Virus record (IMG/VR): IMGVR_UViG_3300002182_000011
Coordinates: 1 to 39,877 of that record
Direction: 5' to 3' (one strand)
Length of the DNA: 39,877 bases
From: a virus
Lineage: Duplodnaviria; Caudoviricetes
Shown: one piece after another, positions 7,987 to 34,744 of the stretch
How positions within the stretch are numbered: the stretch's first letter is position 1
How the letters are laid out: the number at the start of each line of letters is the position of its first letter
Notes under the pieces: model-generated
Told to the model about the DNA's origin: nothing
What the model saw: the letters and a program-made list of their open reading frames with translations, nothing else
Database searches by the model: none
Made by a program: the position numbers and the translations under genes

Positions 7987-8454
7987 TTATGCTTTGGCAA
8001 AAATAGCTTCTTTTATAACTTCATGCTTATACCCATTCTTTTCCAGTTTTTCAATTAGCAGTTTTTTAATATTTAGCGAATGACATTCAATAATATATTC
8101 TGAAACAATTCTAAATATCTCACTGGGAACATAAGCTAAATGTATTTCTCGTCCTTCAATATCAATCTTTACAATGTCTACTTTCTCTCCAAAAGTAGCT
8201 AAAAGCCAAGTAAAATCATCTGCACCACGAATTTCTAATTCAATTAGCTCTACTTCTTTGGTAAAGAACTTCTTTAAATGCTCTTTTACAGATTTAGGGA
8301 ACTTTATATCTACAGCATAAACCTTTTTTGCTCCTTTAGAGAAAAAGTATTCAGCAGTTGTTCCTACATCTGCTCCAATATCAAGAATTACTTTCTCTCT
8401 AAAGTCAGTAAATCCTAAATGCTGTTCATAATTATTATAAAGATTTTCAAACAT
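7987..8454 (-). CDS. FkbM-like SAM-dependent methyltransferase
   Basis: VILDIGADVG motif I; DIVKIDIEGRE; IIECH. Confidence 0.8.
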   Translation of the reverse strand: MFENLYNNYEQHLGFTDFREKVILDIGADVGTTAEYFFSKGAKKVYAVDIKFPKSVKEHLKKFFTKEVELIELEIRGADDFTWLLATFGEKVDIVKIDIEGREIHLAYVPSEIFRIVSEYIIECHSLNIKKLLIEKLEKNGYKHEVIKEAIFAKA

Positions 8455-8458
8455 CTAT

Positions 8459-8716
8459 TTATGATTGTGTTCCTACTACTGTTCCATCACTATCTTGGTC
8501 TGTAGGAATAGCATTGTAAATTCTTAATTTTCCATTAGAATCAACCCATAAGTAATAGCTCGTAATCGTTCCTGCATCATTAACAGCATCTAATCTCAGA
8601 AGACCAGGTTTGTTTGCTTCTGCTTCTGCACAAGCCGCTATCCCACCCTGTTTTACATTCATATCATTTTGATGTGCAGCAGTAGAATTATCTCTACCAA
8701 AATGGGTAATAGCCAT
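8459..8716 (-). CDS. Small virion/head-associated protein
   Basis: Probable start MAITHFG after SD AAGGAGGT; directly follows the capsid locus. Confidence 0.6.
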   Translation of the reverse strand: MAITHFGRDNSTAAHQNDMNVKQGGIAACAEAEANKPGLLRLDAVNDAGTITSYYLWVDSNGKLRIYNAIPTDQDSDGTVVGTQS

Positions 8717-8797
8717 AGATACCTCCTTTCTTAGGGAGGGGGCGTTCCCTCCCTGGGATTTCTTTTTCAATACCTAAGTAGAAATCCCAAAAAGAAC

Positions 8798-9310
8798 TTA
8801 GACTTCTGGGACACGCCCCTCATTCCCAATTTTATTACCACGAGTATTTAAGGAAAGTATTTGTTGCCTTATTTGTAGCATTCTATTAAATTCATTCTCA
8901 TTACTCGCAAAACAGAATCTTCTGTTAATACCCCTTTTTAGGTATTTCAGAAGTTCTAAAATTAATTCTGCTTGCGGTTTCTTGATGAAAAGATAAGGCA
9001 ATACTTGAGGTAACAGATGACGAACTTGGTTAGGAGAAAAACTTAAACGATATACTTGCTTACGATTTTTTCTTTTCTCTTTTGTATAGCAAATATATCC
9101 ATTTTGTAGTTTTTCTCTTAACCAAAGCAAAAATTCAAGATTGGAATTAGAAATTTGCATACACGCCTGGAGTTTAAATCCACAGCGTGTATGCGCTTTC
9201 ATTTTCTTAACTCCAATCCAGCCTTCGCCATCAATTATCCCAGCAAGATAACTTGCCTCTCTTTCATCAAGAATTTTCTGAGAATGAATATTGCTACAAA
9301 GAATAGGCAA
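8798..9310 (-). CDS. Free-standing LAGLIDADG homing endonuclease
   Basis: YLAGIIDGEG motif, LPYLFIKKPQAELI; SD TAAGGAGG overlaps the MCP stop, with TTG at 9310; lies outside intron 3. Confidence 0.85.
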   Translation of the reverse strand: MPILCSNIHSQKILDEREASYLAGIIDGEGWIGVKKMKAHTRCGFKLQACMQISNSNLEFLLWLREKLQNGYICYTKEKRKNRKQVYRLSFSPNQVRHLLPQVLPYLFIKKPQAELILELLKYLKRGINRRFCFASNENEFNRMLQIRQQILSLNTRGNKIGNEGRVPEV

Positions 9311-9320
9311 CTTAACCTCC

Positions 9321-11318
9321 TTAGGCTCCTGGAGAACCAAATCAATCTGTTGCTTTATGACTTGCTAATTAGTTAGCAAGCGGATAGGTATTTCTACCTA
9401 TCTCTGCAGGTCGCCCTGCAGTTCGGACTATATCTTCACGGATTAACCGTGTCCCGTGTATAGTCTCTACACCTTCCAGATTAACTCTGGCTTGGCTCGG
9501 TGTTGTCTCAGAGAGACTTTCACCGAATTTACGGGATATGGGCATTTCTACCCCTCTCCAATCTGCCCAACCAACAGAGAATCTGGTTATCACAGAATAC
9601 AGATAATCTTTGGTGTTGAAATCTCTATCTGAGTCAGTTTCAAGCTCAATTCTGTTGTAGAAAATCAAATTATGATAATCTTTTTCAGTAAGTAAGAACC
9701 AAGCATCCGGGTCATCAAGTCTGTTCCAAACGATTATCTGTAAATTCTGTGTAGCTAACCAGTTATCTGCTCTGTTAGCTGTATCAGGTCTTCCAGCACT
9801 GCGGATTAACTCCCAGGCTGTCCTTTCAAGTTGTGGAGGAACAAGCAAGTAGCGAGGATTAATATCTAAGAGCTCACCTTTATCTCCAGGAGTAAGTCTC
9901 ATTGTATAGAGTGCTTCTTCAAGAGAAGAAACACTCAAATCTGCAGGTGTGGTAAGCTCATTTTGATACGTGCCTCCACCTGCTACCTACCACACTAAGT
10001 TTCCTTAGCCAGCTTTCGCTGTTGTGGTCTGGACTATATCATCCCTTTCGGGCAGGGTCTATAGTCTCTACACCTTCCTTATCTTGCGATAAGGCTTGGC
10101 TCGGGGTTACCATGGCATTACGCTTTAGGCTTTCCCCGAATTTACCCTGTTTTTCAAAAGAGCCTTTCTTATTGAGAGCTTTTATAGCTAAATACAAAGT
10201 TCTTTTTTGCTCAAGTTGTCGCTCATTTTTAACCCAGAGATGATTATTTAGTCCTCTTAGTTGATTTTTAGCATCTTTTTTAGTTATATCTAAAAATTTT
10301 TGGAGTATTTTAGCTTGCTCTCTCTTTACAATTAACAAAGAAGAAATTTGAGGTAATAATTGACGGCATTTTTCATAAGTTATTTCTAAGCGAATTTGTG
10401 GTTTCCAATCTTCTCTTTTTGAAGAAGTTTTATAGATATTTCCGCCAATTAATCCTTGGATATATCGTAAAACTTCCTCATTAGTATTAGTTATGCAAAT
10501 TCTGGGAACATATCCTTTTTTACCAAGTTTAATGGATAAGTTTCCTTCGCCGTCAATCATACCCGCAATATATCCTTTTTCTTCTTTTGTTAATTGCATA
10601 GAAAAGCTCCTTTGCCGCTAACTTTTGTTAACGGATGGTCTGTATCAAAAAGATACTGGCCATCTCCTCCACTCATGAAAGGTGTACCTGTGGAAGAAAA
10701 TCCATTGTTAAATATCTCAGCAGCCATTGTATCTTTGAATCGCACTACTGCATCCGCAAGTGCAGCAGGAAGTCTGGAAATGACATTGTATAAATCATCT
10801 TGAGTCATTTCCATAGTTATCCTTGCACCCAAACCATAAGTAAGGTGGGTGAAGGTTGTATCATATCCCTGCACTGGGTCTTCATAGCTTATAGGAGTTC
10901 CTTCTTCTTTAAGAACTAAGCTTCCAAAACCAGAAAACCCAGTAATTTTTTCATACTTACGGTCAGAAGTGCGAATATCAAAGATTTTGGCATATACAGG
11001 CTGGATTTCCCGATACTTTTGAAAGAGCACTTCCGTTGTGTTAACTGCATATTTCTATGCAGACCAGACTATATCATCCCTTTCGGGGAGCGCGCATAGT
11101 CGTTACACCTTCCGAGAAAATTTTCTCGGCTTGGCTCGGTGTCACCATGAGTAAGTTCAACACTTACTTTTAGGCTTCCACCGAATTCACGCTCTTTTCC
11201 TAAGTGACAGTGATTAATGACATCTTTTTGCGGACATTTCACTATCACTTAGGGGACTGATTGCTCAATCCAACCCTACGTGTAATAGGTCATCAGCATT
11301 AGCTCTTAGCAAAGGCAT
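9321..11318 (-). CDS. Major capsid protein, 4 exons: join(11268..11318, 10631..11033, 9550..9985, 9321..9342), 303 aa after splicing
   Basis: Joined exons are in frame and restore ...LLHVGLD/EVLFQKY..., ...DHPL/AGGGTYQNELTTPADL... and ...WADWRGV/FGSPGA*; YLLVPPQLE and DPDAWFL capsid motifs; SD AGGAGG upstream of 11318. Confidence 0.9.
9343..9549 (-). mobile_element. Group I intron 3 in MCP (207 nt, no ORF)
   Basis: P1 GGGU/A-GAAA-U-GCCC with U.G at the splice site; core AATTCGGTGAAA, ACACCGAGCCAAG, GTAGAGACTATA, AAGATATAGTCC; terminal G at 9343. Confidence 0.9.
9986..10630 (-). mobile_element. Group I intron 2 in MCP (645 nt) encoding a LAGLIDADG endonuclease
   Basis: P1 CCGU/UAAC-AAAA-GUUA-GCGG; P10 GUUA pairs with exon UAGC; R element GTAGAGACTATA and S element GATATAGTCC; terminal G at 9986. 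Confidence 0.92.
10039..10599 (-). CDS. Intron-encoded LAGLIDADG homing endonuclease
   Basis: YIAGMIDGEG motif; own SD AAAGGAG; C-terminus reads through the ribozyme core. Confidence 0.9.
   Translation of the reverse strand: MQLTKEEKGYIAGMIDGEGNLSIKLGKKGYVPRICITNTNEEVLRYIQGLIGGNIYKTSSKREDWKPQIRLEITYEKCRQLLPQISSLLIVKREQAKILQKFLDITKKDAKNQLRGLNNHLWVKNERQLEQKRTLYLAIKALNKKGSFEKQGKFGESLKRNAMVTPSQALSQDKEGVETIDPARKG
11034..11267 (-). mobile_element. Group I intron 1 in MCP (234 nt, no ORF)
   Basis: P1 GGAU/UGA-GCAA-UCA-GUCC; long P2 hairpin; AATTCGGTGGAAG, ACCGAGCCAAG, GTAACGACTATG, GATATAGTCT; terminal G at 11034. Confidence 0.92.
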
Positions 11319-11433
11319 CGGTAATCCCTCCTTTCTTTTTTAAAATTTTAGGTTATTACTTTTAGCCATTTGCTAATATTTTTAATTCGTGGAAGGGGCG
11401 AGCTTCCATTACGCCAAATTTTTATTTAATTCA

Positions 11434-11494
11434 GTGCAACCCCTTGCACTATAAACTAAACTTTCACGTGAAAATTCAGTGCAAGGAGTTGCAC
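11434..11494. promoter_or_regulatory. Composite site: two GTGCAA-N4-TTGCAC palindromes flanking TTTCACGTGAAA, upstream of MCP
   Basis: Palindromes at 11434..11449, 11462..11473 and 11479..11494. Confidence 0.7.
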
Positions 11495-11505
11495 CAAGCT
11501 TATTT

Positions 11506-11976
11506 TTATGATGTTCCTCCGCTCAATTGAGCATAGTCATCAAGAACTTCTACAATTACTCTTCCGTTTGTATCTCCAACATTATCTTCAGGAGCAAGGT
11601 CAACTACTCTTAATCTCTTATTGGTTGTATCTCCTACATCACAGTAGCAAATATTGTTTGCTACATATAGACCATAGGATTTACCAACTTGAGAATAAGA
11701 AGTAGTTGTAGCAGTCCCTGCATTTGTTACGTGAAGAGTAAATTGCTGTCCTTCTTTTGCTATTGTAATTGCAATAGCAGTATTCTCTGTTCCAGAAGCA
11801 TCTTGCATAGCCATCCCTGCTATTCCTGCGGGGTCAGAAGAACAAGCAGTTAATTTTCCATTATTATCCAAATAAACAAATTGTCCTTTCTTAAAGCTCT
11901 GACCTGCAGCTTCAGGAAAGTATGCAATCTGTCCTGGAAGAGTAGGATAACCAGCCTTCACAGCAACAGTTGCCAT
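11506..11976 (-). CDS. Capsid decoration/cement-like protein
   Basis: 156 aa, Ala/Gly/Thr-rich (EAAGQSFKKGQFV, IAGMAMQDA), immediately upstream of MCP. Confidence 0.65.
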   Translation of the reverse strand: MATVAVKAGYPTLPGQIAYFPEAAGQSFKKGQFVYLDNNGKLTACSSDPAGIAGMAMQDASGTENTAIAITIAKEGQQFTLHVTNAGTATTTSYSQVGKSYGLYVANNICYCDVGDTTNKRLRVVDLAPEDNVGDTNGRVIVEVLDDYAQLSGGTS

Positions 11977-11990
11977 CTTAATTCACCTCC

Positions 11991-12371
11991 TTATTCTTCT
12001 TTGATAGTTTCCGTCACAGAAGTTCCAGGAACTCTCATCCCTCTTTCCCTTCTTACCCCATGTCTCATCGCTTCCCTACGCTTTTTTCTTAATTCTTCTT
12101 TTATCTTTTGATGCTCACTATGATGAGAGGCAGGCTCTACCATTAGGATAAGGTCACCATACCGAGCAGAACCATCGGCTGATGGTTTAAGACCTGCTGC
12201 TCGGACTGTATCAGAATTGGCAACCTCATATCCTTTAGCTTCTGCCATGCTTATAGATTCAGGCGTATTCCTAACCCAGCGATAAACAAGCGTAGGATTC
12301 TTTTTGGGTATTTTTAAAGGGTCAGGATAAGACCTGGATAATTCTTTCTGTAACATAGTTATTTTCTCCAT
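11991..12371 (-). CDS. Conserved head-module protein
   Basis: YRWVR...GYEV...GDLILM motif found between scaffold and capsid genes in many podoviruses. Confidence 0.65.
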   Translation of the reverse strand: MEKITMLQKELSRSYPDPLKIPKKNPTLVYRWVRNTPESISMAEAKGYEVANSDTVRAAGLKPSADGSARYGDLILMVEPASHHSEHQKIKEELRKKRREAMRHGVRRERGMRVPGTSVTETIKEE

Positions 12372-12381
12372 TTTTCACCTC

Positions 12382-13122
12382 CTATAATCTCATTTTACCT
12401 GTCTGTGTAGGTTCTTTCTTTTGATATTCACCTTCTTGCTTTAGGTATCTCTCTAAACGTTTTTTATATTCTTCTTCAGAAATACCCAATTTTTTAGCTA
12501 AAATCTTAGCTTCTAAGGGTAATTCTGAAGGAGTTTCCGTAGCAATAGGTGTGCTTCCTTCTACAGGAGGCTTTTCTGGAGGTTTAAGACTTAATCCCAT
12601 TTCGTAAGCAACTCTTGAGCAAGCATCTAATATTCCATGTGGGTCATAATAATATTTGGGATTTGCATTCATAAATGCCTCAACTTTCTTAAAGAATGTT
12701 GAAGATGGATTGTTTAAATCGGGAAATAATCTTTTCGCTTCTTCAATCGCTTTCTCTCTTTCCCGATAAATAAAATATCTCTGCTCCCATTCTCTAATCA
12801 ACTCTTCTTTGGCTTTCGGATATACCTTCTGCCAATACTTTTCCAACTGCTCTTTTGTATATGGGTCAATATCAACTTCCTCAGTAGGTTGAGGAGTTGA
12901 AGTTAATCCTTGCAGTGTTGGTTGTAAAGGCATTTGCACTTGTTGTGTCATATTTTTTAGCATTTGCTCTCTTAAAATTTTTAATTCATTTTCCATTTCT
13001 TCTCTTTTTCTTTTTTCTTCTTCATATAAATTCTTTAATCTTTCCAGCTCTACATCTGGTTTTACTTCTGGAGCTTGAGCAATTTGCTCTTGTTTCAATT
13101 CTTCTTTAGGCTCTCCGTTCAT
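12382..13122 (-). CDS. Capsid scaffolding protein
   Basis: Acidic coiled coil with C-terminal AKKLGISEEEY helix; lies between portal and MCP. Confidence 0.7.
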   Translation of the reverse strand: MNGEPKEELKQEQIAQAPEVKPDVELERLKNLYEEEKRKREEMENELKILREQMLKNMTQQVQMPLQPTLQGLTSTPQPTEEVDIDPYTKEQLEKYWQKVYPKAKEELIREWEQRYFIYREREKAIEEAKRLFPDLNNPSSTFFKKVEAFMNANPKYYYDPHGILDACSRVAYEMGLSLKPPEKPPVEGSTPIATETPSELPLEAKILAKKLGISEEEYKKRLERYLKQEGEYQKKEPTQTGKMRL

Positions 13123-17610: not shown

Positions 17611-18069
17611 CTATAATATTCCTTTTTCTTTCAAGGATATATATTTTTCTTTTCCTATAATAACATGATCTATAACTTCAATTCCTATTATTTTCCCCGC
17701 CTCAACAAGCTTTTTTGTGATTTCTACATCATCCTCAGAAGGGTAAGGGTCTCCAGAGGGATGATTATGCGCTAAAATTATCTGGGCCACTCCCACCAAA
17801 ATAGCAGTCCTAAAAACTTCCCGCGGATGCACCAAAGAAGCATTTAAACTTCCTACGCTGACAATATCAATATATTTAACCTTGTTTCGTGTGTCTAAAC
17901 CAATGACAAACTCCCTCTCTTTTTCCTGTTCTACAATATCAAGGGTTGAAAGATAAGCGGAAATATACCGAAAAACATCGCGAGGATATGAGATTTTAGT
18001 TTCTCCTTGTGTTGTTTCTCTGAGCTTGTAGATTTTGCTTAGAGCTTCTTGAGGAAGAGCTACTAACAT
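17611..18069 (-). CDS. radC: RadC-like JAB/MPN domain protein
   Basis: VHPREVFR, ILAHNHPSGDPYPSEDD and VIDHVII motifs. Confidence 0.92.
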   Translation of the reverse strand: MLVALPQEALSKIYKLRETTQGETKISYPRDVFRYISAYLSTLDIVEQEKEREFVIGLDTRNKVKYIDIVSVGSLNASLVHPREVFRTAILVGVAQIILAHNHPSGDPYPSEDDVEITKKLVEAGKIIGIEVIDHVIIGKEKYISLKEKGIL

Positions 18070-21663: not shown

Positions 21664-22383
21664 TCATTTTTTTCTTTTTTCTTTTATTTGCGCTTGAGCT
21701 AAAGCATTTCTCATTGTTCCAAAATGTCTTTTAACACTTGAACTTTTATTTTGAGTAAATTTATCAAATGTCCACGCTCCAAAAGGTCTTTTTACAATAT
21801 TATAAACTCTTTTAATCTCATTTAATAGAAATTCATCAGTATATCTATTTCCTATTTTTATATCAGCATTAGGAAAACTCTCTAAGTATTTTTTCATTTT
21901 TATGTAAGTCCATTTAGTTCTTTTTGTTCCCCGATTTAATTTATCATTTAATTTTGCAATTGTTAATAAATCTTCTTTCGTTCTATGTTTCCATTTTCTT
22001 TTATTCATATAATTTATAATTTTACTCCAAATTTCAAAATCTTTCTTTTTTATTTTTAAAGAGTATTTTTTAAAAAAATCTATTAATTGTCTACATGCTG
22101 TTGTCTCGCATTGTAAAATCGCTCTTTTAGAAATTTTATTTTCTTTTTTCTTTTTATAAATATTAATAATTGGTTTTCTTATCTTAATTCCAAAGAAGTT
22201 TTTGAGATTTTTTTGAATATATAGCAATGTGGGATACTCTTTTTCATTTAAAGTAATAATAAATCGGGGATGAATTTGTAAAGCGAAATTTGAATGAGGA
22301 ACTTTACGAATAGCGATATTAAAACATCCTTCTCCATCTACCAATCCCGAAAACCAATATCCAAATTTATCTTTTTTATTCAT
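21664..22383 (-). CDS. Free-standing LAGLIDADG homing endonuclease with a C-terminal endonuclease-associated repeat
   Basis: WFSGLVDGEGCF motif; C-terminal YTDEFLLNEIKR...RHFGTMRNAL. Confidence 0.88.
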   Translation of the reverse strand: MNKKDKFGYWFSGLVDGEGCFNIAIRKVPHSNFALQIHPRFIITLNEKEYPTLLYIQKNLKNFFGIKIRKPIINIYKKKKENKISKRAILQCETTACRQLIDFFKKYSLKIKKKDFEIWSKIINYMNKRKWKHRTKEDLLTIAKLNDKLNRGTKRTKWTYIKMKKYLESFPNADIKIGNRYTDEFLLNEIKRVYNIVKRPFGAWTFDKFTQNKSSSVKRHFGTMRNALAQAQIKEKRKK

Positions 22384-26779: not shown

Positions 26780-27187
26780 TCAATTTCCAATTTTTCTTTT
26801 AAAAATTTTCACAACTACTCCTGCCCAATGTTCCCAGATGTTTCCATCTACATCTTTTCTATTTATTTCTACATCTATTTTCAGATTATCATTTTTAAAG
26901 GTCCAAATTTCCTTCTCCCCATAGTTAAAAGTAATTGTTCCAGTTTTAATACAATTTTCTACTTCTTCAATAGAAACATTAGCTTCTTTCAATTGTTTTT
27001 CATAAACTACTATTCCATTTCCATAAAAAGGAAGTATATAAATTTTCTGTGGTTCTCTTACTCGGCGAGCAGTTATTTCTGTAATTTTTAGTGCAAGCCC
27101 TTGCACTACAAAGGATATTAAAAAACTAAATAAGATGCTGGTTTTGTAAAATCTGATAAAATTTTTCTGCTTCTTTTCCGCAATCAT
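26780..27187 (-). CDS. Hypothetical protein; start uncertain
   Basis: 135 aa ORF overlapping the 3' end of the upstream gene. Confidence 0.45.
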   Translation of the reverse strand: MIAEKKQKNFIRFYKTSILFSFLISFVVQGLALKITEITARRVREPQKIYILPFYGNGIVVYEKQLKEANVSIEEVENCIKTGTITFNYGEKEIWTFKNDNLKIDVEINRKDVDGNIWEHWAGVVVKIFKRKIGN

Positions 27188-29432
27188 TCCTGAACTCTAA
27201 ATCTAATATTCCAAACCTTTGCAATTTTTTCTCTAATAAATGGTATACTCTTTCGCTTGCTTGCTGGATAGTTATTCCTGTGGAAGTAATTATGGCAGGT
27301 TGGAAATCTGTATCTGCACAAACTAAATTTCCTTCCTCATCAAGCATACAATCAAGTAAATGAACATGCTTATAGTTTTCTATGTTTTGAATTAATCTAT
27401 GCGGAATATAAGGCTTTTCTGGTAGGAAAGTCCTTACAGAAGCAGAGAAGAGGTCTTTATTGGTCTTAACTTCCTTTAATACTCCTAAACAAGCATCAGA
27501 AATGATTTTACCCAAATCTTCGTTAACAAGCTCTAACATAGTATAGATAGCATTTAAACCAAAACGGCAATTTCCTACAATTGCTGGAAATCCATTTCTT
27601 CTTGTAAGGAGTAAATGATTAGGAACTTCTAAACAATAAACTTTTCCTTCATAAGGAACTTTTTTAATATCTCTTCCTTGTATCCAATTACCTATTTGTT
27701 TTTTTCTTTCTGCAACTATATATAAATCATGTTTCCTTTGATAAGTTTTTCCCTTTATAGTTAAAGAAGTATTTTTTGATTTTCTTATTTTGATATGAGC
27801 AGAAATTCCACATTTTAAACATAATTCTTGTAAATCATCTGCTAACCTTTTGGAAGTAGTAAAATAAAGTCTTTGTTTTTTATGAACACATCCGTCTCCT
27901 AAAAAATAAGCATCCAAAAAAACTTTTATTTGTGAAGGTGGAAGTTCTTTAACATAAGAAGGAACATATTTTTCTGAAGCAGTTCCAAAATTTAAAATCT
28001 TAGCTAATTGTATTGAACTAATTTGAAAACCATGTTTAGTTTCTGAGAACTTAAAAGGTAAATTCTTAAGTATTTCTCTTATTTGGTCTTTTTTAGAATA
28101 TTGTGAAATTGAAACAATATATTTTTTGTGTGCTAAAGAACCTTCTGCTAAGTAAATACCTAAAAATTTAAGCCAATCTTCCATTTTAATTAATATTGCT
28201 TTATGTTTAATTTCTAAAGTTTTTTTATATCTTCCCAAATAATGTTTTTCAATATACTCTGGAATTTCAAAGAATTCTCTTTTTTGCCCAGTCCATTTTC
28301 CTGTAATCTTAATTTCATATCCATGTTTATTTAATTGGTCCGCGCGTAAAAATTTAAATCTTTTTTGTTGAGGAGGTCTTACCCACATATTATGGTCAGG
28401 AGTCACTAATATATCTTTATTAGGAGTTCTCTTTTTAGTTAAACCTGAAGTAAAATGTATTAACTCTCCTTTAAAATATTTTTTAATAGTTCCTATGACT
28501 TTTTGATATTCTAAATAATCAGTTTGTGGATTAAGTGTCATAACTTCTTCACCTAAATCCACATCTTTAATATATTTCCAACCATTTTTAGTTAAAACTT
28601 CTGTTTTTTCATCAAAACAAGTAAATTCCAATCCAAAAGGAGTTCCATTAAATACTATACAATTTATATCTATTACTCCTAAATAATTTGTATTTTTAAA
28701 AAATGGAGTTAATTTTTCTAATGTTTTCTTAAAATGAGGAGTTTCTCTTTGTTGAGGGAGAACTTTTACTACATCCAGGGAACAGCCTGTGTTGACTCCT
28801 GTATTATTATCTCCTTTTCTTTTTCTTTCAAAAGTTATATTGCACCACCCATCTACCCAATCTCCTACCCATAGTCCTTCACAAGAAACTTCCACTCCTT
28901 CTATATATTCTTGAAGCTCAAACTCAACTATTTTATGCATTTGTTTTTTAAGACCTTTAAGGAAATGAACCATATCCTGAGCATTTGAACTCACATAAGT
29001 TAAGGCTGTAGACATATTATTAGAAGGCTTAAAGACATATCTTTTATTAGAATATTGCACAAATTTTATCGCAGAGTCAAAATCCTGAAAAGCAGTAGTA
29101 GGAGGTATTTTTATACCTGCAATCTTCATAATCGAAGAACCATAAACCCTATCTAATTCTAATTTATCATGAACCAATCCTCCTCCAAAAACTTTGTATC
29201 CTGCATTTTTAAGTCTGTCCGCTAAAGCTCCGTATCCAACCATATCAAAGACTATAATTTTGTCTGGCTCTAAAGCTTTTCTCCAATCTGTTATTTTGTT
29301 TATAAGACCATCCCCTACATGCTTATATTTAGGAGTTGCAATATAAAAATCTACTTCATTACCTTCCCTTGCCAGCCTCATTGCCAGTGCTAATGTATCC
29401 CCAAATTTGGAAAACCATAAGAACTTTGCCAT
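27126..29432 (-). CDS. PurD (GAR synthetase)-like ATP-grasp ligase containing an intein (418 aa after splicing)
   Basis: LELDR, YVFKP, LQEYIEGVEVS, ERKRKGDNNTGVNTG and spliced LEFT/CRFG motifs. Confidence 0.85.
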   Translation of the reverse strand: MAKFLWFSKFGDTLALAMRLAREGNEVDFYIATPKYKHVGDGLINKITDWRKALEPDKIIVFDMVGYGALADRLKNAGYKVFGGGLVHDKLELDRVYGSSIMKIAGIKIPPTTAFQDFDSAIKFVQYSNKRYVFKPSNNMSTALTYVSSNAQDMVHFLKGLKKQMHKIVEFELQEYIEGVEVSCEGLWVGDWVDGWCNITFERKRKGDNNTGVNTGCSLDVVKVLPQQRETPHFKKTLEKLTPFFKNTNYLGVIDINCIVFNGTPFGLEFTCFDEKTEVLTKNGWKYIKDVDLGEEVMTLNPQTDYLEYQKVIGTIKKYFKGELIHFTSGLTKKRTPNKDILVTPDHNMWVRPPQQKRFKFLRADQLNKHGYEIKITGKWTGQKREFFEIPEYIEKHYLGRYKKTLEIKHKAILIKMEDWLKFLGIYLAEGSLAHKKYIVSISQYSKKDQIREILKNLPFKFSETKHGFQISSIQLAKILNFGTASEKYVPSYVKELPPSQIKVFLDAYFLGDGCVHKKQRLYFTTSKRLADDLQELCLKCGISAHIKIRKSKNTSLTIKGKTYQRKHDLYIVAERKKQIGNWIQGRDIKKVPYEGKVYCLEVPNHLLLTRRNGFPAIVGNCRFGLNAIYTMLELVNEDLGKIISDACLGVLKEVKTNKDLFSASVRTFLPEKPYIPHRLIQNIENYKHVHLLDCMLDEEGNLVCADTDFQPAIITSTGITIQQASERVYHLLEKKLQRFGILDLEFRNDCGKEAEKFYQILQNQHLI
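27570..28619 (-). mobile_element. Intein with LAGLIDADG endonuclease domain (350 aa)
   Basis: Block A CFDEKTEVLT, block B VTPDHNMW, endonuclease blocks YLAEGS and FLDAYFLGDG, block F VYCLEV, C-terminal GN/C. Confidence 0.93.
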
Positions 29433-29704: not shown

Positions 29705-32700
29705 TTATTCTTCTTCCTCATTATCTAAGTATTCTTCAATAAACTCTCTCAAAGGAACAGGATGAGTTCTAAGATAATCTTCCTTGCGCTTCTTCCTATT
29801 TACTATTGCCCGATATAATTCCATTTCGCTTAATATTAAACCTCTTACTAAGTCTTCATCTAAGTTGTATCTTTCTCCTAAAGCCCTTATATCTTCATTG
29901 TATTGCTCGGCCATTTTATACACATGATTTAAAGCATCTCCTCTCTCTAAGGCTCTTACCCCTAATTTTACTAAATTTGATTTTGCTCTTTTCCTAAACT
30001 CTTCTACGTATTTAATATAATCCATCTTATTGTAAAGCTCTCTTATCCGAGCAGGCATAAAACTTAATGCTCTTATAAACATTTCTTCAGCAGTAGGAGT
30101 ATAATAAATAGCTCCTCCCTTAGTAATTCCTCCTTCTTTTATCCATTCTAAGACTTGTAATAAACCTGTAAAGGCACTGGGAGTAAGCCTCTCCAATGCT
30201 TTTAAATAGTCTCCATTAGCAATATCTTTCCATCCTTCTTTTATATTTTCATAAAATCCCACTACTGCAGGTCTACCATAAGCTAATATAGCAGGATAAT
30301 CCAATAATGTTACTTGAGGTCCCATATCCACTCCTGTAAAATAAGTAAAAGGACCTTTTGCCATCATTTCAGCAAATTCTTTCCCTCCTAAAGTCTCTGC
30401 CCATTCTTTAATATCATCTTCTAAATTGCGTTTAGTTTTAGCTCTATATGCTTTTTTCCAAAGCCAAAAACCAGGCATAAGTCTCATGCCTGCAAAAAAA
30501 CCAAAAAATAAGCTCAAGATTAAAAATCTTCTAAAATTAGACCATCTGTCTTTAGGTTCTTTAAGAGCTTGCCAACCACTTCTCATAAAAACATGAGCCA
30601 TGCGTGTCGTAGTTATAAAGAAACGATAAAAAATATCTAATAGAGGTGTTTGCTCTACCATTACAGGAAGCTCATGTTCATAAAGCATCTGAGTTCTGCT
30701 AATATAATCTCTAACAAAAGGCATAACTTTTTCTACATATTCTGGTTTTGCGGAAAATTCAGGGTCTTTTTGTTTCAAAATACGTGCGATATCAAATAAA
30801 GATTTCGTTCTTAAAAATCTCTCCATCTTCTTTGTAGGTAAGGTAAGAAATAAATCTATTGTCCAAGGTATTTTTCTTTTACCTACTACAAAAGGGATAT
30901 ATGCTTCTTGTCCTAATCCTCTTCTATCTAACTCTTTTACAAACTCAAGGATATCTTGAGGTATGCCTTCTATTTTATCTGGTAAAGGAAATCCTTTTTT
31001 TAATAAATACTTTAATGTATCCTCAAAAGTTTGAACCCATATTTTTGTTCCATCTGTAATACCTATCTGTGAGCTATTTTCTGCAAGATTCCAAAAAGTT
31101 TGTAACCCTTCTGTAGCCAACCAGGATAATCTTGTTCCTAATGCATAACCTGTTATAGCTAAATTTAACCATAAAAGTCTTGACTCATTTGCAAAGATAT
31201 TATCTAAATAAATTCTTGTATATTCTTTTATGTCTGGGTCTGTAATCTTAGTAGTTATTTCTGGTAAAATAGCTCTAAATTCTTCTATTGCTCTTTTATA
31301 AGCAGTCCAAGAATTAAGTCTTAACAAGGAAGCCATCCAATCTTCCATATCAAAATATTGCCATCCTCCTACTTTTTCTCTGGGTAAAAGGAAAGGAGGT
31401 AAGGACCTTTCTTGAATATAATCAATAATTTTTTGCACTTCAGGAGTAATTTTTATATCTTTTTCTTTTATAATCATTTCTATATCTAAATCGCTTGTAT
31501 ATCTACGATATAAAGTCCATTTAGGCGTAGGTATAGGAGAAGTAATTGCATTTATCCACTCTTTGGCTGTTCCTTGGAAGATTATTCTTGCTCCTCGTTT
31601 TTCTAAATCTTGAACTGCTTTATTTAAAGACTTTCTATCTTTGAAATGATAATAAACATCATATTTTTCTTTTATTTTTGCCCTTTCTTGTGGAGATAAT
31701 GTATCAAAAGTTTCTTCTACTTCTGGAGGTCTGAAAGTTGCTAATAAAACATAAGGATTTTTACTCAAAGGGGCACGAGTTAAAGTCATGTATCCTATTG
31801 CTTCAGATTTTGCTTTAAAATCATTTGCCCATTCTTCATATCTTGCCAATTGCTCTTGAACTCTGGCTCTATCTTCAGGAGTTACTGCTTCTTTCAATCT
31901 TTGTTCTAAAAGAGCTTTACGGGATAATAGATAATTATTTGTTACATAACGGTGGAAATCAACTAAGCTATTATAAGCAGCAATCTGTTCAGCATTAAAA
32001 CCATATGCTTTTAATTCTTCTTCTGTAGCATAAGGCTTTTCTTGTAGAGTTCTTTCCATTGCATACCTACGCACCAATTCCGCTTGATAAGGAGCTTTAT
32101 CATATAAAGTAATTAAATCTTTTAAATGCTCTAACCCTTTTACATTATAATACTTGTTTAATTCTATAAAATTATGATATGCATCCCAAACTTCTTTAAA
32201 CTCTGGATACCAATCCGCCATCATTCGTGGTAAAGCCCCAAAATACCAGAAAGCTTTTTCTGACAAAGTAACGACAGGTTTAATTAAATTAAATGCTTTT
32301 ATCCCTTCATTAAGTCTTTGTTGTGCTAAGGGATTACCTTGTAAGAAGCGATGAATCATCCCTGCAGGAATACCTCCACCTTTAGGAGTATATTTGCTAC
32401 GTAAAGATACCCAAGTAGAAACTTTAGCTAATTCATCTTCAGTAAGAGCTTTTAAACCTTCTTCTATTTGTCTTTCTACTTGTTTTTGGGGAATTTTTAA
32501 TATTTTGGCTATTTCTCTTATGCTCCCTTTAGGATATTCTCCTTTTTGTAAAATAGAAAAGAAATCATCTGCACTGATTATATTTATTAATCCTCTCACT
32601 AAAGCTGGATATTGAGAAGCATATTTTGCAAAGATTGGCTCTAATTCAGTGGCTAATAAATCTAAGTCTCCATCAGGCTTAGAGATTATCTTCCCAGGTT

Positions 32701-34744
32701 CAACTTCTTCTCCTTCAGGAGTAGTTATTTTTTGAGCTAAGGAATAAACTTCAATCTTCTTTGCTTCTTCTATCTTTTGGGCTTCTTTTTTCCCTACTTT
32801 CTTAGCCAAAGCAGAACGAATTTCTTCTTCAGTAGGTTCTCTACCTAATTGCTGTCTTAAAGTATCCATTATACGAGCATATCTTCGTCTTGCTCTTACT
32901 ATAAAAGGAGCATAAGGATTGTATTCTTCTAAAACTTTTCTTAATTTATAATCAACCAATTGAGTCCAATTTGGTAGATGTCCTCTTTCAATTGCTGAAC
33001 GCATCCCTAAATAACTTTCTGTTAAAATTCTATCTTGAAAATTCTCAAGCTTACCTACCATTTTAAAAAATTTTGTTTTTTCATCTTCAGTTAAGGAATT
33101 CAAAAATCCTTGCACTACTCCTTTTACTGTAGATTTTAATTTATCTATATCTATGTTCTTTATCTGTAATTCTATCTGAGCTAATTTCTTAAGTTGTGGG
33201 TCTTCAGTAGTATTGATAATCTTTTCCAATTGCTCAGGCATAGCATTTCTAACCATATCAATATAGTGTTTTTTATCGGCAGGTAATTGAGCAATTATAC
33301 TATCTTTTTGTTTTGCAAGAGTCTGAACTTTTACTATTTTTTCTGGCTCAGGAGGTTTAATCTTTGGTTTTACTGGTTCAGGTAAAACAATTTTAGCCTT
33401 ATGAGTTTCTAACAATTGTAAAGTTTTTTCTATCCCATATTCATCAATTCTTCTTAAAGCATTTTGAATAGCTTCTTTCTGAGTATTTCCTGTAGCAATT
33501 TGCAAACCTGTTTCTTTATTTGTAATTACCCATAATTTAGGATTTATTATATCCCGATGAGCAAACATATTTATTGTCTTATAAGTAAGAGGATATGTCC
33601 TTGTTTTTATAGGAATTAAACCTTCATCAGTTTGCACAAAATATTCAGAAGGAGCAATTAGTTTTCCTTGAGCTTGTTGTTCAGTAACGGTAGAAGGTTT
33701 TATTTGTTCTTCAGTAGGAACAGCAGGCTTTACTCCTGGAGGAATTTCTTTAGGACTTGTAATCGGAACTTCTTCTCCTACAGCTTCTACTCCTTTGGCT
33801 TTTGGCAGAGGAACTTCTAATTCTGGAGCTTTTACTGTTGGAGGTGGAGCTGTTACTGCTGGAGGAGCCACTTTGGGTGCTTCTGGAAATCTAAATGTAG
33901 GTATAGGACGAGGTTCACTAATAACTTTTTCATAAGGTTGAGCTCTAAAATAAGATTTTAATTTAGCCCAAAAAGGTTTATCTACAACTCTAATAAATTT
34001 CTCCGCAGGAATTTCTATATCTATTCCTCTTTGTAATGCGGTCCTTAATTGGTCTCTGGATAAGTTTAAACTGGCAAAAAGAGATTGTAGCTCTGGAGGA
34101 GTTAAAGTTCCCGATTGATAAATGTCTTTTACTTGTTCTGCAGAAAGTCTGACTGTTTTAGGTAAATTATATTCTACTATTTTTTGTTTAGTAAAACGTT
34201 CAAAAATAGGAGAAGTTACCCAGGGAGCTCTTTTATAAACTTGTCCTGCAATTGCTCCTTTACCGATAAAGTCTATTAATTCAATCAATGCTTTCCAATC
34301 ATCACTAATATCAGAAGGAATAAATTTTTCTGTAGGAATAAGCTTATCTAAAATATGGAATGTAGCAATAGAAGATAACATAGGAACAGGCTCTGCAACT
34401 AACCCTGCAATTACTACAGGAGTAGAAAGTAACTGTTTATATTCTTCTTCACTAATATCAGTTGGTTTTATACCTGTTATACGAGGGTCACGAGCTAATT
34501 TTTGATAATGTTCCCGAATCACGTGTAAAGGAATTTTTGTCTGTTGAGAAAGAGCCCATATATTCTGAGCATAAGCTATTTGTTCTGCTGGACGTTCAAA
34601 AATCTTTCTTCTTAATTGCTCTAAACGACTAATTGGTGGAGCAGTCCTTAGCTCAGGAATTTTAGGCAATATCTCATTTGCCTCTTCTTCAGTGAAGATA
34701 GTTTTAGAAAATTCTTTTAAGTCTTCTTCATTAAAAATAGGCAT
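29705..34744 (-). CDS. Large internal virion / DNA ejection protein
   Basis: 1679 aa helical protein, last of three genes after the tail module, with a C-terminal hydrophobic segment; podovirus ejectosome position. Confidence 0.7.
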   Translation of the reverse strand: MPIFNEEDLKEFSKTIFTEEEANEILPKIPELRTAPPISRLEQLRRKIFERPAEQIAYAQNIWALSQQTKIPLHVIREHYQKLARDPRITGIKPTDISEEEYKQLLSTPVVIAGLVAEPVPMLSSIATFHILDKLIPTEKFIPSDISDDWKALIELIDFIGKGAIAGQVYKRAPWVTSPIFERFTKQKIVEYNLPKTVRLSAEQVKDIYQSGTLTPPELQSLFASLNLSRDQLRTALQRGIDIEIPAEKFIRVVDKPFWAKLKSYFRAQPYEKVISEPRPIPTFRFPEAPKVAPPAVTAPPPTVKAPELEVPLPKAKGVEAVGEEVPITSPKEIPPGVKPAVPTEEQIKPSTVTEQQAQGKLIAPSEYFVQTDEGLIPIKTRTYPLTYKTINMFAHRDIINPKLWVITNKETGLQIATGNTQKEAIQNALRRIDEYGIEKTLQLLETHKAKIVLPEPVKPKIKPPEPEKIVKVQTLAKQKDSIIAQLPADKKHYIDMVRNAMPEQLEKIINTTEDPQLKKLAQIELQIKNIDIDKLKSTVKGVVQGFLNSLTEDEKTKFFKMVGKLENFQDRILTESYLGMRSAIERGHLPNWTQLVDYKLRKVLEEYNPYAPFIVRARRRYARIMDTLRQQLGREPTEEEIRSALAKKVGKKEAQKIEEAKKIEVYSLAQKITTPEGEEVEPGKIISKPDGDLDLLATELEPIFAKYASQYPALVRGLINIISADDFFSILQKGEYPKGSIREIAKILKIPQKQVERQIEEGLKALTEDELAKVSTWVSLRSKYTPKGGGIPAGMIHRFLQGNPLAQQRLNEGIKAFNLIKPVVTLSEKAFWYFGALPRMMADWYPEFKEVWDAYHNFIELNKYYNVKGLEHLKDLITLYDKAPYQAELVRRYAMERTLQEKPYATEEELKAYGFNAEQIAAYNSLVDFHRYVTNNYLLSRKALLEQRLKEAVTPEDRARVQEQLARYEEWANDFKAKSEAIGYMTLTRAPLSKNPYVLLATFRPPEVEETFDTLSPQERAKIKEKYDVYYHFKDRKSLNKAVQDLEKRGARIIFQGTAKEWINAITSPIPTPKWTLYRRYTSDLDIEMIIKEKDIKITPEVQKIIDYIQERSLPPFLLPREKVGGWQYFDMEDWMASLLRLNSWTAYKRAIEEFRAILPEITTKITDPDIKEYTRIYLDNIFANESRLLWLNLAITGYALGTRLSWLATEGLQTFWNLAENSSQIGITDGTKIWVQTFEDTLKYLLKKGFPLPDKIEGIPQDILEFVKELDRRGLGQEAYIPFVVGKRKIPWTIDLFLTLPTKKMERFLRTKSLFDIARILKQKDPEFSAKPEYVEKVMPFVRDYISRTQMLYEHELPVMVEQTPLLDIFYRFFITTTRMAHVFMRSGWQALKEPKDRWSNFRRFLILSLFFGFFAGMRLMPGFWLWKKAYRAKTKRNLEDDIKEWAETLGGKEFAEMMAKGPFTYFTGVDMGPQVTLLDYPAILAYGRPAVVGFYENIKEGWKDIANGDYLKALERLTPSAFTGLLQVLEWIKEGGITKGGAIYYTPTAEEMFIRALSFMPARIRELYNKMDYIKYVEEFRKRAKSNLVKLGVRALERGDALNHVYKMAEQYNEDIRALGERYNLDEDLVRGLILSEMELYRAIVNRKKRKEDYLRTHPVPLREFIEEYLDNEEEE

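Follow-up and report, generated by a model that had tools for sequence, protein, structure and literature searches.

A phage major capsid gene split by three predicted group I introns, with a candidate LAGLIDADG partner for one of them

How can a phage make its capsid protein from a gene that is broken into four pieces, and what keeps the interrupting sequences in place? A 39,877-nt stretch of viral DNA (hereafter the window) raises this question, an original prediction having placed three group I introns within its major capsid gene. The answer that we favour, with a probability of roughly 0.8, is that these introns are selfish elements that spread by homing and that are predicted to self-splice, yielding a 303-aa capsid protein.

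The gene lies on the (−) strand. Exon 1 (11318–11268) comprises 51 nt, or 17 codons, and stands 3′ of a GGAGG ribosome-binding motif. Exon 2 (11033–10631; 403 nt) carries the Pfam domains Phage_capsid_4 and Mu-like_gpT, while exon 3 (9985–9550; 436 nt) is defined by the joined frame and by alignment with homologs. Exon 4 (9342–9321) is only 22 nt long and supplies the last six codons and the stop, equalling the conserved C-terminus of the homologs. Scripted joining of the four exons resulted in 912 nt encoding 303 aa, with no internal stops. Of 43 longer proteins retrieved with exon 3 as the query, the 29 closest (P0001–P0029) were aligned; because the search targets full-length proteins, this set is intron-free by selection. 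All 29 align with the joined protein, with 184–234 of 303 residues identical, and every alignment is collinear and gap-free at all three junctions, both small exons included. Within exon 1, 11–17 of the 17 residues are identical in 28 homologs, the 29th (P0015) having a late start. The original prediction of the coordinates, of phases 0, 1 and 2 and of a 303-aa product including the 51-nt and 22-nt exons was correct to the base, and the reading frames bear out its view that all three introns would have to be removed for an intact capsid protein. Skipping of exon 2, exon 3 or both gave no in-frame capsid product, each combination running out of frame or into a stop.

The exon 2 and exon 3 ORFs match PF25209 and PF10124 above the cut-off, and also phrog_371. 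For the fold, a model of the intron-free homolog P0001 (229/303 residues identical) stood in for the joined protein. This model (pLDDT 66) shows an HK97-type fold, with the capsids of phiXacJX1 and T5 as the best Foldseek matches (E < 1e-9) and phage capsids and encapsulins matching at a TM of about 0.5. A sequence search of solved structures returned a single weak match, 9jod_A (E = 7e-4), and a search for capsid relatives in prokaryote genomes returned a single distant one (27%). Upstream of the capsid gene, and on its strand, are terminase, SU10-like portal and cement-like genes. The gene could in principle be a decayed copy or a misassembly from which no protein is made, a reading that we find scarcely credible: the head module has no other annotated capsid gene, its exons are under purifying selection (58 synonymous and 28 non-synonymous changes in exon 3), one 8,600-nt contig in each of two DNA runs covers 9536–12000 without a difference, and two of the introns recur at the same sites in a relative, L018. 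The ~180-nt leader before the gene (11330–11500, (−)) holds a long inverted repeat and is shorter in L018 and L015. A promoter and terminator scan gave nothing usable, with 11 promoter-like sites in 8300–12500 against 10.9 in shuffled sequence.

The three inserts are discrete insertions relative to the intron-free alleles of relatives, and all lie on the (−) strand. Intron 1 (11267–11034; 234 nt, phase 0) and intron 3 (9549–9343; 207 nt, phase 2) contain no ORF and match the covariance model RF00028 at 53.2 bits (E = 7e-11) and 66.1 bits (E = 9.7e-15), respectively. Intron 2 (10630–9986; 645 nt, phase 1) matches at 48.6 bits (E = 1.6e-9), 1.4 bits below the gathering score of 50 bits. An Rfam scan of the whole window at E ≤ 1 yielded these three matches only. 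In all three introns P1 is paired at 4/4 positions, with the last U of the 5′ exon pairing with G; P3 (6/6), P4 (6/6), P7 (5/5) and P8 are fully paired; and the intron closes with a terminal G, its ends being fixed by homolog alignment. Before P7, the helix of the guanosine site, stands an A-U pair in intron 1; introns 2 and 3 both have G-C there. P10 is paired at 4/4 positions in introns 2 and 3 and is weak in intron 1 (3/6 pairs). P9.0 of intron 2 is also fully paired, and the core of this intron, at about 10160–9986, is ~470 nt away from P1. An early in-frame stop is described for most such introns in PMC3073962; the first codon of intron 1 is an in-frame TGA, and intron 3 has no early in-frame stop. 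Judged on sequence and predicted pairing, the inserts are group I introns that split a gpT-like major capsid gene, as the original prediction held in naming three group I introns with a U·G pair in P1 and a terminal G, and their splicing is predicted. By established group I chemistry, external GTP would attack at the U·G pair, and the exons would next be ligated at the terminal G.

Rfam, motif scans and a core hidden Markov model (HMM; trained on 90 of 122 unrelated loci sharing a core motif, with the window sequence excluded) found no further introns in the window, although IA-like introns can escape all three, Rfam having overlooked three of the four introns in L018. The core HMM recovered 3/3 introns in the window and three in a second near-complete genome, G001, where the next match had an E value of 3.6; in both genomes the detected cores are confined to the capsid gene. 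A comparison of intron 3 with cultured phages yielded 30 matches, all partial and most of them within the terminase genes of T7-like phages, and none of them covered >80% of its length.

The locus also contains two LAGLIDADG genes that the original prediction overlooked, one in intron 2 and one behind the capsid stop. Its description of three ribozyme cores holds for the cores themselves but is incomplete for the 645-nt intron, which also encodes a 186-aa protein (10599–10039, (−)) with a single motif (Pfam LAGLIDADG_3, 29.2 bits, above the cut-off). This ORF begins after P1 and extends through the core to P8, an overlap termed core creep in PMC3073962. The free-standing ORF (9310–8798, (−); 170 aa) likewise has a single motif (Pfam LAGLIDADG_1, 27.3 bits, above the cut-off). 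It starts with TTG, begins 33 nt past the end of intron 3 and is preceded by an AGGAGG motif that overlaps the capsid stop. No second copy of the 3′ exon was seen behind this gene. The two proteins are 31% identical to each other, and in both the motif is intact with its acidic residue and conserved in a 19-row alignment. We found no relatives of the intron-2 endonuclease in viral contigs, and intron 1 has no evident endonuclease partner in the genome.

Under homing, intron 2 would spread through its own LAGLIDADG gene, whereas the ORF-less intron 3 would likely spread via the free-standing gene behind the stop codon, its candidate partner. The endonucleases would cut intron-free alleles during co-infection, and repair of the cut allele would copy the elements. 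The essential nature and conservation of the capsid gene likely make it a good target: only by exact loss can an intron be removed from it.

A pseudo-palindromic target suits a homodimeric enzyme. The intron-free codon-297 site in two relatives, L017 and L044, forms a pseudo-palindrome of 8/12 pairs centred 1 nt off the insertion point. Only 3 of 596 centres score equally high (P = 0.015 by synonymous resampling), evidence that is modest given that seven offsets and several sites were examined. The score in 16 other relatives is only 1–7/12, and the codon-152 site of intron 2 has 6/12 pairs.

Relatives of the free-standing endonuclease point to a similar neighbourhood. Its three best matches among 85 loci (L037, L222 and L051, representing two distinct elements) lie directly behind intron-free gpT-like capsid genes. 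Of 80 loci retrieved by means of an endonuclease alignment, 5 have the gene in this position, with the strand shared in three and opposed in two. The enzyme of L037 and L051 is related at 41% identity, and intron 3 is absent from both. In L037 the endonuclease gene has its own TTGACA-17-GATAAT motif (1505–1560), and the capsid site reads Gly-Ala, not Gly-Val, which possibly avoids self-cleavage. Intron 3 and the free endonuclease gene are both present in the window and in a second strain described below, and both are missing from L017 and L044. Their co-inheritance is not strict: L018 has the intron 3 ortholog without the endonuclease, while L037 and L051 have a related enzyme without the intron.

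We surveyed the distribution of introns in 38 fetched loci matching at ≥55% identity, a set with self-hits removed that still includes many duplicates across collections. Introns are present in three contigs. L018 (identical to L096) has four, after nt 51, 278, 436 and 890, and its exons join to a 303-aa protein with 246/303 residues identical to that of the window. The first and last of these are orthologs of introns 1 and 3 (82% and 80% identical) at the same sites, with six compensatory pairs between intron 3 and its ortholog; the middle two are different introns with LAGLIDADG-like ORFs. L015 (identical to L046) has the nt-278 intron only, its sites at nt 51, 436 and 454 being empty, and L044 starts within the nt-278 intron; by tblastn, site 93 of L015, L044 and L046 reads as empty where the piece enters the intron, which is present. 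The intron 2 site (nt 454) is empty in all close relatives that cover it. Together, the window and its relatives have five insertion sites in the 912-nt gene, with those at nt 436 and 454 just 18 nt apart.

The intron 3 ortholog of L018 (4450–4643) is 10 nt shorter in P8, where hardly any helix is left, and may be impaired or misassembled. Another intron of L018 (3155–3995) carries a 270-aa ORF through the whole core and ~230 extra nt at P8. The 3′ half of intron 3 (window 9343–9437) shares 80–81% identity with the 3′ end of the nt-278 intron (L018 2906–2996; L015 3413–3502), an intron from which it otherwise differs, a likeness that suggests exchange between introns of the same gene.

Because the number and sites of introns vary among close relatives, we read them as mobile elements and not as a conserved switch. 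The original prediction had raised the idea that triple splicing is a timing checkpoint on capsid output, and a GTP-sensing version can be added. Such an adaptive role would fit the dependence of the protein on three splicing events, and PMC11878797 considers, as a hypothesis, a 'molecular on-switch' for DNA-metabolism genes. We nevertheless consider it very unlikely, since relatives have 0, 1, 3 or 4 introns at differing positions, the nearest strains have intron-free alleles and the two endonuclease genes account for spread with no benefit needed. Moreover, the capsid-gene intron of the mycobacteriophage LittleE is described as efficiently spliced in late expression (PMC3706429).

Retention of intron 3 would give a protein of 356 aa with 59 new residues and a stop at 9371–9369. 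The original prediction of this variant is right about the open frame, the 59 residues and the stop at 9369; the comparison with L018 argues against protein selection on the tail. The idea that retention makes a functional minor capsid protein draws on a frame that runs without a stop for 59 codons in the window (P = 0.012 against dinucleotide shuffles, for that frame) and for 56 codons in L018. Yet the read-through codons differ from those of the L018 ortholog by 1 synonymous and 13 non-synonymous changes, set against the 58 and 28 of the exon 3 control. The substitutions fall mostly at codon position 2, the indels shift the frame (+1, −10 and −4), and when the same substitutions are placed at random, 41% of trials keep the frame open. 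Within RNA helices the changes are compensatory, and the alternative tail would displace the conserved last six residues. Judged by these differences, the tail is evolving as RNA, not as protein; any read-through product is most likely a by-product, and we give a functional minor capsid protein only a slim chance.

Evidence on how recently intron 3 has moved comes from strains close to the window. L017 and L044 are 78% identical to the window in exon 3, and the next gene of L044 is 89% identical. Over a stretch of 527 nt L015 does not differ from L017, and its end falls exactly at the fork between the intron-plus and intron-free sequences. The DNA runs X1 and X2, both labelled hot springs metagenome, are possibly those from which the window itself came and are hence not independent of it. 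In both, an L017-type contig (78% identical to the window in exon 3) extends as far as the opening bases of intron 3; a further contig links the spacer behind the endonuclease gene to the L017-type next gene. A contig over window positions 9197–9565 begins where the two exon-3 types converge and has zero differing letters. It reaches depths of 76 and 116, compared with 35 and 45 in the case of the window-only contig, depth being a rough guide. The two strains have 17 bases in common at the fork, which we infer to be too few for joining in the assembly graph without spanning reads. Because the contigs are shared and fork at the point of convergence, and because this overlap is too short, the diverged strain apparently has an identical intron 3, exon 4 and endonuclease gene start. 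Such a segment in a strain that is otherwise 78% identical points to recent homing, possibly of the collaborative type.

The middle of the endonuclease gene (8977–9197, 219 nt) has a second, diverged allele in both runs, with identical flanks, and is possibly a swapped DNA-binding region. L221, an independent window-type contig, starts at the boundary of this variable middle. Binned depth suggests that the intron-free allele also occurs in X1 and X2.

The co-occurrence of a 78%-identical strain having an intron-free allele with the phage of the window could also mean that the endonucleases are weapons that cut the capsid gene of co-infecting relatives, the introns being kept as a shield. PhiPA3 provides a precedent in its action against PhiKZ (PMC11878797), and the target gene is essential. 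We think this role unlikely as the explanation, although it is compatible with homing, because the second strain apparently gained the cassette, which is gene conversion and not exclusion. Homing of selfish introns remains the reading that we prefer.

Elsewhere in the window, further LAGLIDADG sequences are present. An ATP-grasp (PurD-like) protein (27126–29432, (−)) contains a LAGLIDADG-bearing intein, which is optional, since the G001 ortholog lacks residues 272–612. A third LAGLIDADG gene (21664–22383, (−)) with an HNH_repeat C-terminus lies between a Cas4-like nuclease and a DNA ligase; it has no match in G001, and the perfect TTGACA-17-TATAAT motif before it hints at a bacterial host. A RadC-like JAB protein (17611–18069, (−)) and a 1,679-aa protein with a weak PLxRFG match (29705–34744, (−)) have no match in G001 at E ≤ 1e-5.

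Capsid-gene introns as such are already known, and the view of the original prediction that three of them in one such gene are unusual is not supported. For LittleE, splicing of a capsid-gene intron was established by RT-PCR and N-terminal sequencing, and a capsid-gene intron of Tuc2009 is cited in the same source (PMC3706429). As described there, the LittleE intron resembles those of the window in interrupting the major capsid gene behind a small first exon, in the U at the exon end, the terminal G and an internal LAGLIDADG-like ORF, and in being optional among relatives. It differs in being a single intron with an opposite-strand ORF in a siphovirus of a high-GC host, whereas the window combines three introns with an ORF on their own strand that overlaps the core, and with an endonuclease gene that is free-standing. 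In the crAss Zeta-group phage OLRF01000054, also known from a metagenome, the capsid gene is in five fragments parted by group I intron segments (PMC7886860). The gut phages of that source are large and have introns across many of their genes; in the 40-kb phage of the window, whose capsid is of another family, all detected introns lie in one 912-nt gene. Another precedent is orf142 of the Staphylococcus phage Twort, a virion structural gene with three group I introns, and polymerase and terminase genes of Bastillevirinae have up to three (PMC11878797, PMC3073962). By contrast with the window, where skipping yields no in-frame capsid, orf142 encodes a tail tube protein and exon skipping is reported for it.

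Pairs in which a group I intron that lacks an ORF is accompanied by a free-standing endonuclease gene beside the host gene, as seen for intron 3, are likewise known from collaborative homing. The cases described are the S-PM2 psbA intron with F-CphI, T3/T7-like phages, and the ICP1 terminase intron with a T5orf172 gene (PMC6083498, PMC10448857, PMC3984707, PMC2988022). These systems use Endo VII-type or T5orf172 enzymes, whereas the enzyme in the window is a predicted single-motif LAGLIDADG protein; a limited literature search found no phage case of collaborative homing with a LAGLIDADG enzyme.

Phage group I introns are described as biased to genes of nucleotide and DNA metabolism (PMC11878797, PMC12350094). 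To place the window's introns among environmental phages, we used the shared core motif, which occurs in about 1,100 viral stretches (estimated from 8 of 64 parts). The search returned 122 loci, 80 of them with flanks (L099–L178). The ORF pieces adjoining the core in these 80 belong to the major head protein in 18 loci, DNA polymerase in 12, tape measure in 8 and terminase in 5. The 18 capsid-adjoining loci fall into 17 of 76 clusters; 17 of them match RF00028, and four (L133, L136, L150 and L159) have two cores each, the second within 1.5 kb. In 3 of the 18, both flanks show the insertion to be inside the capsid gene; for the remainder this is inferred. Across the 80 loci, virion genes exceed DNA-metabolism genes as neighbours of this intron core.

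What the locus adds to the known cases is a hotspot of five sites, along with an intron 3 that is apparently still spreading in the company of a free-standing LAGLIDADG gene. A bolder, two-part proposition is that intron 3, together with the free gene, constitutes a collaborative-homing unit of the LAGLIDADG type that is midway through a sweep between phages only 78% identical in the target gene, with two alleles of the enzyme's central 219 nt (the predicted DNA-binding region) present in one population, and that the capsid gene, not DNA-metabolism genes, may lead as the host of this intron type in environmental phages. We regard the odds of both parts holding together as even.

The locus shows no new kind of regulation; its significance lies in the elements and where they reside. 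ORF callers break such capsid genes and overlook the 51-nt and 22-nt exons, so that capsid-based phage surveys miscount these phages. The introns are compact ribozymes from a habitat labelled hot springs in the run records. With filled and empty alleles from one population and a candidate pseudo-palindromic target, the locus is a compact natural test set for homing. Contrary to the described bias towards DNA metabolism, two near-complete phage genomes have all their detected introns in one 912-nt capsid gene.
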